A DNA stretch of 64,000 nucleotides, from NCBI GenBank assembly GCA_951406725.2, contig OX597819.1, positions 117,056,001 through 117,120,000 on the forward strand, read 5' to 3'. The DNA comes from Octopus vulgaris (taxonomy: Eukaryota). Below are positions 25,962-62,603 of this stretch, piece after piece. The notes under the pieces are model-generated. The model worked only from the letters and a program-made list of their open reading frames with translations. It was not told where the DNA came from and made no database searches. A program made the translations under genes and the position numbers. Positions within the stretch are counted from its first letter, which is position 1; each line of letters begins with the position of its first letter.

Positions 25962-26195
25962 TCTTTTACTCTTTTTTTTTTTTACTCTTTTATTAGTTTC
26001 AGTCATTTGACTGCGGCCATGCTGGAGCACCGCTTTTAGTCGAGCAATTCGACCCCGGGACTTATTCTTTGTAAGCCCAGTACTTATTCTATCGGTCTTT
26101 TTGCCGAACCGCTAAGTGACGGGGACGTAAACACACCAGCATCGGTTGTCAAGCAATGCTAGGGGGACAAACACAGACACACAAACACAAACACC

Positions 26196-26230
<35 letters not shown>

Positions 26231-26380
26231 ACATATATACGACAGGCTTCTTTCAGTTTCCGTCTACCAAATCCACTCACAAGGCATTGGTCGGCCCGGA
26301 GCTATAGCAGAAGACACTTGCCCAAGTTGCCACGCAGAGGGACTGAACCCGGAACCATGTGGTTGGTTAGCAAGCTACTT
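25961..26380 (-). mobile_element. OK-type SINE, body (head displaced to 28620-28648 by an insertion)
   Basis: Reverse complement of the 7406-7820 family. Breaks at ...caagctactt and resumes as accacacagcca at 28637. Confidence 0.9.
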
Positions 26381-26556
26381 TATTTCAAAACATTTGCCAT
26401 AAAGGCAGTACACAAATTAAGTTCGCTTTGCGGGCTGGACGAGGACATTAATGAGGTGAATGATAATGAAAGAAAGATGATAAGGATGGGAGAAGACAGA
26501 AAGCGCCCGCCGACTTTTGCTTCTCTAAAACATTGTTCTTTTTTAAAAAGATAAAC

Positions 26557-26683
26557 ACAAAACGAGGTATAAAACCTCTTACAATTTTTCCAATTTTTTG
26601 GCTTAGCAGTCCATTATTAATACAAAACGAGGTATTAATCCTCTTACAATTTTTCAATTTTTGGACTTAAGTCCATTACTAAT
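26557..26683. repeat. Tandem duplication (~63 bp x2) in the element 3' UTR
   Basis: acaaaacgaggtat..cctcttacaattttt..agtccatta(t/c)taat occurs twice. Confidence 0.85.
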
Positions 26684-27910
26684 AATACATATCGTCCTCG
26701 AAGTAGCTTGTGCCCGCGCCCTCCACCATCAACCACGCCTCCCTCAGAACGTAGTCAAGTTCCGAGTTCGCGTCGCCCGGGACCAAGTTATAATCTTCAT
26801 TGAGCTCCTTTAACCCTAGCGTCACGTCGAACGCCACGGCCTCCACAACTACCTGCGGAGGCCATTGTGAAGGCTAAAGGTGCTCCCTTGTAGTGCTCTT
26901 CCATCACTTTTTCAGTTTCTCCTCCTCTATAGAAGAGGACCAATACATTCATTCTTTCGTTGGCGGCACAGTTTCCGCCAACGGTATTCCTTCTCATGTC
27001 GGTGGCACAACCCCAACCGACGTAGTTCCGGGACATTCCGGTGTTACACTGACAACCGGTAATGTCCCGTTTTTCTTCCTCTTTTTCTTTTTTTTCCCTT
27101 TTCAACTGAGGGAGGGTGCGTCTCCTCCGTGGCTGGAAGATTCGCCTTCCTCTCCTCATCCCTATTATCTTTGGTGAGCACCCATTGTTGCTCACCTTCC
27201 TCTTTCGGCCTCTGTTTGAGGAGTTCTCTGCTTTCTCGGCCGTTATCGTTCCCTCTTCTAGAGGGGTTTTACTTAACTGTTCCGGGATCCTATTTTGTTC
27301 CCGAGGACAGTACTTCTTTATGTGGCCGGACTCCAAGCACCGATGACACTTAGGGGGGGCGACCCTCAAGCATTACCGGGTACCTGCACCCGGCCATTTT
27401 CAAAAAATCTGGAAGAACCAGATTGGCTGATTGGGTCCACAGGGTCAAAATTGCTTTCGACCCAACCCAAGCAGCCGCAGGAAGAACTTTTACATTGAGG
27501 AGCTTAGTTTCACTGTCACCCAGACCCCGGCGGATAGTCTCCTCTATCCACTCGGATTCTATGTCGGGTGGCAGTCCGCAGATCCAAGCTTTCATCAATT
27601 TCTTTTTTTTGTACGTGGGCAGGAATAAGATTTCCTTACCCTCCAAGGGTTTGCTAGCAAATTTGCAAGCCTCTTCAGGGGTGTCAAATAGCAACCACAC
27701 CGTTGCATATTTGACACCCCTGGAAATGAATTTAATTGTTGGCAAATACTCTTCCAACTCCTCCTCAATTGCCGTCTTTTCGAATAGGGCGATGGTGTCA
27801 AGTGCCTTGGAGTAGGTTCTCAACACCACCGTCCTATCTTCACGGTCTTTTAACCACTTTTTGGGTGGTATGATTTCCCACTCCAAAATTTTGTTATTTT
27901 TCATTGCCAT
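26679..27910 (-). pseudogene. L1/Tx1-type ORF1 (Gag-like) protein: RRM-like segments + CCHC zinc knuckle, frameshifted
   Basis: ORF 27910-27350 (VWLLFDTPEEA, WICGLPPDI, RYPVMLEGRPP) joins ORF 27369-26797 (KCHRCLESGHIKKYCP = CX2CX4HX4C) by removing one base from the G7 run at 27353-27359. A second probable shift near 26870 extends to ...YFEDDMYY* at 26679. Confidence 0.75.
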
Positions 27911-28646
27911 GTTTTTTTAAAAAATATATTCAAATTAAACTCAAAAGCAGGAAGAAAAAAGTTCAAAAGTCTAAATAAAATTTGATAGATTTTTGAAAAA
28001 AAACAAAAAGGAGAAAGCACAACAGAAGGGAAGAAATTAACGGAAAGTCGCAATAAAGAAAAAAACAAAAGGGGGGGGGGGGTTAAATGAAGTTCAAAAG
28101 AAAGTTAATAAACAGAAAAAACACAGCAAAAATATTCTGGCCTTGCGGTACTCCCGGCCTGGGTTGAACCTGGAACGCCGCAACTGCAACACAACCTCCA
28201 CAAAAATGGGTCCGAAAGGTAATCCAATAGTGGCTTATTTTTATACTTTTCTTGTGAAGTACTCTGACAAGGGAATAAATTCAGCAAACTCAAACACAGC
28301 ACTGGCTACTGCCAACGGTAATTTTAACAGTAACTGTATTGAATTCTGAGTATACGCCCCTCCACTGTTTTTTCTTTTTTTTTTTTTTTTCAATGAACAC
28401 AAAAACGGCAGCCGCCTAGCGCAGGCGAAATTGTCTCAGAGTTGGACACAACCTACTGAAATAATAATTGGCACGCAATAAATTATGCCCAACTCACAAT
28501 AAACAAAATCACTTACCTCGACAACTTTCCGTTTTTGGTCTTTTTTATTTAGTTGGACAGAGCTTGTTACTCACGTCCACTCTAGCTCAACAAGAAGCAA
28601 CCGACTAACTGCGCATGTCTGGTTAGCAAGCTACTTACCACACAGC

Positions 28647-28681
<35 letters not shown>

Positions 28682-43657: not shown

Positions 43658-44024
43658 AGCCGCAGGAATGGCTGTGTGGTAAGTAGGTTGCTAACCAACC
43701 AAATGGTTCCGGGTTCAGTCCCGCTGCGTGGCATCTTGGGCGAGTGTCTTCTGCTATAGCCCCGGGCCGACCAATGCCTTGTGAGTGGATTTGGTAGACG
43801 GAAACTGAAAGAAGCCTGTCGTATATATGTATATATATATATGTGTGTGTTTGTTTGTGCGTCTGTGTTTGTCCCCCAAGCATTGCTTCACAACCGATGC
43901 TTGTGTGTTTATGTCCCCGTTACTTAGCGGTTCGGCAAAAGAGACCGATAGAATAAGTACTGGGCTTACAAAAAGAATAAGTCCCGGGGTCGAGTCAAAT
44001 GACTGAAACAAGTAAAAGAGTAAA
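43658..44024 (+). mobile_element. OK-type SINE with small 3' internal deletion
   Basis: Matches 7406-7820; lacks the ggcggtgctccagcatggcc segment. Confidence 0.9.
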
Positions 44025-57578: not shown

Positions 57579-57744
57579 AGGAGTGGCTGTGTGGTAAGTA
57601 GCTTGCTTCCCAACTACATGGTTACCGGTTCAGTCCCACTTCGTGGCACCCTGAGCAAGTGTCTTCTACCATAGCCTCGGGCCGACCAAAGCCTTGTGAG
57701 TGGATTTGGTAGACGAAACCTGAAAGAGGCCCGTCGTATATATG

Positions 57745-61869: not shown

Positions 61870-62603
<734 letters not shown>

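Follow-up and report, generated by a model that had tools for sequence, protein, structure and literature searches.

Nature of the insert

An ORF1-only retroelement lying complete inside a SINE raises the question of what it is and which machinery brought it there. The window analyzed here, a stretch of 64,000 nucleotides from Octopus vulgaris (contig OX597819.1), holds such an insert, and a preliminary description had read it as a HAL1-like element nested in a SINE. The layout given at that time holds on measurement (Table 1): a 2239-bp insert on the minus strand is flanked by a perfect 17-bp duplication, and the leader of about 710 nt, the ORF1-like region, the CX2CX4HX4C motif and the 3' UTR of about 300 nt were all recovered. 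The 17-mer occurs five times in the window at two mismatches or fewer, compared with 0.01 occurrences expected by chance. The three matches away from the insert (43681-43697, 57596-57612 and 62235-62251) are presumably empty copies of the host SINE, which the preliminary description took, from sequence alone, to be of the OK type.

The insert is complete in the sense of full length, but its reading frame is not intact, as five indels (near 27359, 27169, 27095, 26951 and 26866) separate its ORF1 from that of a natural intact copy used as reference (L002). The three broken ORF pieces gave no Pfam match at E ≤ 1, and no long inverted repeat bounding the insert was found among the 25 longest listed. 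The AATAAA described at the 3' junction is present but not wholly the element's own: it is formed by the last bases of the element together with the first two A's of the target.

Table 1. Features of the ORF1-only element and its host SINE in the window.
Feature	Position	Strand	Remarks
Full-length H1 ORF1-only non-LTR retroelement	26381..28619	-	24 near-full-length copies, 94-100% identical, with the 3' end in common
Upstream 17-mer, apparent TSD, partly element-borne	28620..28636	-	Distal half tracks the element subfamily in other copies
5' UTR, 706 nt	27914..28619	-	First ~358 nt replaced in subfamily B; more replaced in L055/L056
ORF1, five indels in the window copy	26679..27913	-	414 aa in intact copies
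ORF1 N-terminal part, two predicted RRM-like domains	27353..27913	-	Model of L002 residues 1-215
CCHC zinc knuckle, CX2CX4HX4C	about 27307-27348	-	Sequence; PF00098 E = 0.0077 (under cut-off) in an intact copy
3' UTR, 298 nt	26381..26678	-	Contains an imperfect tandem duplication, 26551-26662
27-nt tail with TGCC-N5-GGCA hairpin (26395-26407)	26381..26407	-	Sole terminal sequence in common with the driver
Downstream 17-mer, target-derived	26364..26380	-	Fixed insertion point between 26380 and 26381
Host SINE head remnant (A-box-like motif), just upstream of the site	28637..28649	-	Same context in 42/48 copies
Rest of the host SINE: B-box-like motif, body, microsatellite, tail	25963..26363	-	Lower bound approximate

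A young family without ORF2

A DNA search of the octopus genome, in which 40 of 3291 candidates were scored, listed 24 copies over nearly the whole query (94-100% identity, the window copy among them), 15 further copies over query positions 359-2239, one over 2-1931 and seven weak matches. Additional copies of this family, here called H1, came from a protein search, and the exact 27-nt tail pattern matched the genome 216 times (reversed control: 0). After 11 duplicates had been dropped, 49 distinct loci were retained, a set that the protein search enriches for intact copies; an open ORF1 of 412-416 aa occurs in 21 of these. H1 is a young family, with a mean p-distance of 0.021 over the 49 loci, and its subfamilies carry shared diagnostic changes, so that copies beget copies. 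No ORF2 was found in H1 copies: the 49 distinct loci stop at the tail, ~300 nt past the end of ORF1, as do 30 loci picked in genome order. The anticipated multi-copy, ORF1-only family with both termini in common thus exists. Among the copies examined, there is neither a continuation into an ORF2 nor a single copy with an intron-containing parent gene, two of the outcomes named beforehand as speaking against it. The expectation that copies would show distinct TSDs failed, since the family is sequence-specific for one SINE site.

Three loci (L188, L197, L241) bear internal deletions with head and tail kept and are possible seeds of non-coding derivatives. Three sequencing runs presumed to be RNA, and one from another organism, gave contigs over 25-29 of 30 bins, a coverage that is uninformative on transcript start, strand and level.

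A single insertion point in an abundant SINE

The nesting in a SINE is no coincidence, as insertion is site-specific. The 3' junction falls at one and the same position in the SINE head in 30 of 30 loci from the DNA search and in 30 of 30 loci from the protein search. In an unbiased set comprising the first 30 of the 216 tail matches in genome order, the SINE 17-mer follows directly after the tail in all 30. LINE families have been counted as target-specific when more than 20% of their flanks lie in one repeat (PMC4494074); here, the proportion is 30 out of 30 for H1 and likewise for the autonomous driver described below. Poly(A) is absent at the junctions. Genome-wide, 68,904 exact sites are empty versus 536 that are filled (~0.8%), and the host SINE, present in at least 68,904 copies, is probably a large and harmless landing pad. 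The insertion point lies just past an A-box-like motif and splits it from a B-box-like motif (both seen by eye), so the SINE copy that receives an insertion is probably silenced. An empty SINE copy gave no tRNA match in Rfam at E ≤ 10; three tRNA-derived octopus SINEs are cited in PMC4758252.

A hybrid duplication at the 5' end

The upstream 17-mer, initially interpreted as a pure target duplication, turned out to have two sources. Both 17-mers are identical in only 13 of the 48 scored loci (L012 was missed by the pattern, yet is identical on both sides), and the match most commonly breaks off after base 9-10 or base 15. All eight copies of subfamily B have one variant upstream 17-mer, combined with four types of downstream 17-mer. 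L047 carries the same private change at base 7 on both sides, which differ at base 13, and in L015 an extra target-like head comes after a full duplication. Because the distal half of the upstream 17-mer tracks the element subfamily and not the target, the 'TSD' is a hybrid, with its proximal part from the target and its distal part from the element RNA. Co-transcription with the target is known to be able to strengthen target-specific integration (PMC4494074, Kojima 2015).

An autonomous driver at the same site

An autonomous element at this site was reached through the combined pattern of tail and site (221 matches): ORF2 was present in five of the first 30 matches, and one of these served as query for a further search. 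The driver is a unit of 5439 bp, in which a CCHC-bearing ORF1 of 467 aa precedes an ORF2 of 1133 aa with APE and RT; Exo_endo_phos (PF03372), RVT_1 (PF00078) and zf-RVT (PF13966) are all over cut-off. The closest solved structure to its ORF2 is human L1 ORF2p (E = 8e-67, versus 6e-20 for R2). The top driver copies end at the SINE site in 30 of 30 cases, one of them with one A fewer and one followed by another element's head at a regenerated site. With a mean p of 0.008, the driver is as young as H1 or younger. The 1133-aa ORF2 is found in 12 of 15 longer driver stretches and an intact ORF1 of 466-467 aa in three. A search by zf-RVT (150 matches) was unsuccessful as a route to the driver: none of the 30 loci fetched combined the family tail with an end at the SINE site, which implies that most Tx1-type elements in the octopus genome target elsewhere. 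We call the driver Tx1-like, based on reports of L1-Tx1 in coleoids and on its domain layout, which we take to be that of Tx1 elements. A protein database search with its ORF2 returned no named Tx1 reference. At the family level, L1-Tx1 elements and abundant SINEs are on record for octopus and other coleoids (PMC8967140).

When the termini of the window element and the driver are compared, only the last 27 nt align (a weak match if taken alone, 81%, E = 0.12), comprising the TGCC-N5-GGCA hairpin and an A-rich end. Three other short matches between the two (E 0.12-0.43) look like chance. Of 50 tails, 37 have TGCC ahead of GGCA, separated by loops that vary, although the pattern used did not demand TGCC, and one driver variant has a CGCC/GGCG tail. 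Single-sequence folding recovered the 4-bp hairpin in four out of seven SINE-site tails. Tx1-type elements with other targets carry a CCCC-N5-GGGT tail, and older driver subfamilies with other tails exist.

ORF1-only elements and driver also occur side by side. Mixed tandem arrays are found at L183 (ORF1-only, driver, ORF1-only) and L163, and arrays of ORF1-only elements at L093, L097 and L098; upstream of H1 copies, arrays of other ORF1-only families of ~2 kb run up to about six units. One further locus (L099/L071; C7:13.47-13.49 Mb) places a Tx1-type body with another flank behind an ORF1-only-type 5' UTR in a SINE-site array. It was set aside as a candidate parent of H1, as it is probably a chimera that arose by template switch or 5' UTR capture. 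An intact Tx1-type family with an ORF2 of 1132 aa (L101 and L102, C2:73.04-73.07 Mb; L106, C2:114.47 Mb) has a fixed flank motif in a different repeat and is therefore a second site-specific family; it forms arrays with a period of ~5.4 kb.

ORF1 belongs to an old clade and is under purifying selection

The ORF1s of H1 and three related families (H2, H3 and H3b) share 43-68% identity with one another and 23-34% with seven Tx1-type ORF1s, to which they align by BLASTP at E-values of 1e-18 to 1e-30. Identity to the driver ORF1 is 29% for H1 (27-30% across the H clade), so that H1 did not arise from this driver by mere deletion, and no parent element of H1 was found among the loci examined. In a midpoint-rooted tree of 14 rows, the H-clade ORF1s group together with a protein of Octopus sinensis (100/100) on a long stem, apart from all Tx1-type ORF1s. 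Judging from these sequences, the ORF1-only elements at the SINE site form an old and diverse clade. Modules are swapped within it: H3 combines the front of H3b with the back of H2, and an H2 front is joined to an H1 back in 4 of 30 loci.

For residues 1-205, comparisons between families gave dN/dS ratios (Nei-Gojobori) of 0.11-0.27, and the two close pairs gave 0.06 and 0.19, while the C-terminal half gives 0.32-0.55; between-family dS is 1.1-2.1, near saturation, making the between-family ratios rough. The ratios nonetheless indicate that ORF1 is under purifying selection. A model of L002 residues 1-215 (pLDDT 82.7) retrieves tandem-RRM proteins at the top of a Foldseek search (E about 2e-4, but a low query TM of 0.24-0.35), whereby two RRM-like domains are predicted in the ORF1 N-terminus by E-value and secondary structure only. 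Look-alikes in the ESM Atlas include CCHC and ZCCHC3-like clusters. A protein database search with ORF1 yielded a single real relative, in addition to a short match at 11% coverage. This relative (LOC115225585 of O. sinensis, 281 aa, 63% identity) bears the annotation of an uncharacterized protein; the gene model is probably a copy belonging to this element group that was taken for a host gene.

A census of 50 of the 221 tail-plus-site loci, with 6.5 kb of upstream sequence for 40 loci and 1.5 kb for 10, comprised 21 loci with an H-clade ORF1, 2 with an H4 ORF1, 9 of driver type and 18 without a coding match. ORF1 and ORF2 occur together at three census loci, where ORF1 is of driver type. An H-clade ORF1 followed by ORF2 was found neither in this census nor at the 49 H1 loci, in a search that scored the top candidates only and could miss a rare autonomous element.

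Other ORF1-only elements were met along the way. H4 (L097, L098, L133, L240) is ~1.5 kb long, encodes an ORF1 of 408 aa and shares both SINE site and tail with H1. In the tree, this ORF1 falls among the Tx1-type ORF1s outside the H clade, which points to an independent origin of the ORF1-only state. An unrelated ORF1-only unit (L110, L256-L275; e.g., C2:138771023-138793249) encodes 371 aa, ends in a CCCC-N5-GGGT tail and builds long head-to-tail arrays with a period of ~1.75 kb. No stop interrupts 108 of its 110 listed matches, and no ORF2 match was found at 20 fetched loci. Its insertions seem to lie beside the 5' ends of Tx1-type elements or of other units like itself.

Proposed mechanism and alternative explanations

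We consider it highly probable that H1 is a non-autonomous ORF1-only LINE that inserts at one fixed base of a SINE and for which the Tx1-like driver likely supplies the ORF2 protein in trans. The preliminary description had already proposed a trans-mobilized family that keeps its own gene, and the fixed ends, the lack of ORF2 and the selection on ORF1 support the core of that proposal. The trans step itself is likely, given the site, tail, age and arrays that H1 and driver have in common. We infer the following course. Transcription would begin no further downstream than the first base of the upstream 17-mer, giving the RNA a target-like 5' end. The H1 ORF1 protein, with its two predicted RRMs and its CCHC knuckle, would package its own RNA in cis, which may be why ORF1 stays under selection. 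The driver ORF2 protein would then bind the 3' TGCC-N5-GGCA hairpin, nick the SINE just past the A-box-like motif and prime reverse transcription. The AATAAA at the junction would provide a short read-through of the RNA into the target, possibly pairing with the primer strand, in keeping with invariant junctions that lack poly(A). A second nick some 15-17 nt away would leave an overhang able to anneal to the cDNA of the target-like head, and such annealing may produce both the precise full-length insertions and the hybrid 'TSD'. As the site is regenerated at each insertion, arrays could grow, and 5' UTR, N-terminal and C-terminal modules would be swapped between families.

The fixed site could instead have been inherited: after one ancient insertion, a composite of SINE and ORF1 element may have been amplified as a whole by the SINE's partner LINE. 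The identical 3' junction in all copies, the SINE head upstream of 42 of 48 copies and the part of the upstream 17-mer that moves with the element all fit such a composite. It has nevertheless been largely refuted and we give it scant credence, because one element subfamily is combined with different downstream SINE variants, another element's tail instead of the SINE head lies upstream in the other six copies, many unrelated families and the autonomous driver sit at the same base, and short 5'-truncated inserts (L123, L124, L129, L130, L250, L253) adjoin the SINE head and show duplications of 8-17 nt. Retrocopying of a domesticated, intron-containing host ORF1 gene would explain why the one named relative is an O. 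sinensis protein, but it has next to no chance of accounting for over 200 copies with a fixed site, a LINE-type tail, many divergent families and arrays; moreover, the genomic loci that match the protein best are contiguous, without introns.

Recurrent products of premature polyadenylation or deletion from a living Tx1/L1 element would be in keeping with the homology of ORF1 to Tx1-type ORF1s and with the AATAAA at the junction. This origin is very improbable in view of the H-clade ORF1-ORF2 combination missing from the 49 H1 loci and the 50-locus census, the LINE-type terminal hairpin without poly(A), the diagnostic changes that subfamilies pass on and a best identity of 34% to any autonomous ORF1 examined. 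Rather unlikely, but with more in its favor, is that selection on ORF1 reflects a role other than packaging in cis, be it as a trans helper or competitor of the driver or through host use, or that a second, unsampled LINE does the driving. Proteins of this kind have been suggested to multimerize with those of the autonomous partner (Kojima 2018, PMC5786205), and the ZCCHC3-like look-alikes and the older driver subfamilies with other tails also speak in favor of this group of readings. On the other hand, selection inside a mobile multi-copy unit would be most simply explained as a cis benefit, and all nine driver-type census loci resemble the driver found (five are 52-64% identical to other Tx1-type ORF2s; identity to the driver ORF2 is 59-86% at the loci where it was compared). 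Movement in trans by the driver, with ORF1 acting in cis, thus remains our preferred explanation.

More tentatively, and at a likelihood that we would put a little short of even, H1 may belong to an old and hitherto undescribed guild of Tx1-type ORF1-only elements that have outlived their parent. In this guild, the 27-nt tail would act as a code that picks the ORF2 (TGCC/GGCA for the SINE site, CCCC/GGGT for other sites), and precision would come from target sequence at the RNA ends. If so, base-exact SINE specificity would be reported for the first time for a LINE, the guild's driver, and the system would have three tiers and provide a compact tool for site-specific insertion.

Implications

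H1 offers a natural experiment on why ORF1 is needed in cis while ORF2 can be borrowed. As the two elements have 27 nt in common and ORF1s that are only 29% identical, RNA recognition, ORF1 function and target choice would be separable. Intact and young, the driver has base specificity for a site that occurs ~69,000 times, which makes it a candidate APE-type enzyme for targeted insertion. For genome annotation, it is relevant that ORFs of this type can be called host genes, as has happened to the one O. sinensis relative, and the filled or empty state of SINE sites can readily serve as a population marker.

The literature searched, largely non-subscription papers, contained no report of the H1 family, of an ORF1-only Tx1 element or of a SINE-specific Tx1 element; the supplements of PMC4494074 list more Tx1 targets, and Repbase or Dfam may have an entry. 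Within this literature, H1 is the first ORF1-keeping non-autonomous LINE found for a cephalopod.

Comparison with known systems

Non-autonomous LINEs in which ORF1 is present have been described in three groups: HeT-A (Jockey), HAL1 (L1) and Ag-Sponge (CR1) (Kojima 2018, PMC5786205). Tx1-like elements would add a fourth. HAL1 (half-L1) of mammals is an ORF1-only element of the L1 group, derived from L1 by loss of ORF2, whose long-kept ORF1 has been read as a sign of ORF1p acting in cis and ORF2p in trans (PMC5753468, PMC3627910). H1 is equally ORF1-only and non-autonomous, with a likely trans partner. It is not a HAL1 proper: it is an octopus element whose ORF1 has a CCHC knuckle and matches the Tx1-type ORF1s of the same genome. 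Unlike HAL1, it has a Tx1-like driver and a cephalopod host, inserts with base specificity and without poly(A), and is linked to its driver by a 27-nt tail, while its ORF1 is only 29% identical to that of the driver. HeT-A corresponds to TAHRE without RT, and the telomeric elements lie head to tail (10.1101/445429), an arrangement that the arrays of the 371-aa unit resemble. HeT-A and Ag-Sponge share with H1 the state of an ORF1-present non-autonomous LINE, but belong to other clades, and HeT-A targets chromosome ends and serves its host, whereas H1 targets a dispersed SINE.

Sequence preference is established among Tx1 families, such as Tx1 (inserting into Tx1D), Keno, Kibi, Koshi and Tx1-Mar, and SINEU-3 shares the target of its driver (PMC4494074). 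The targets named there are snRNA genes, 5S genes, satellites, microsatellites, DNA transposons and LTR elements, with no SINE among them; likewise, the target list in PMC8869645 does not name SINEs, though it includes 'other TEs'. The octopus system has in common with target-specific Tx1 elements and SINEU-3 the preference of some families for other transposons and a non-autonomous passenger on the driver's target. The SINEU passenger is, however, non-coding, while the H1 passenger keeps an ORF1 under selection. A further parallel is provided by R2 and the R2/R1 SIDEs of Drosophila, the latter being site-specific, non-autonomous elements that use the machinery of a driver, display the target duplication of that driver and depend on being co-transcribed with the target (PMC3414825). 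SIDEs are short, internally deleted rDNA elements using a ribozyme, whereas H1 is an ORF1-coding element at a SINE site.
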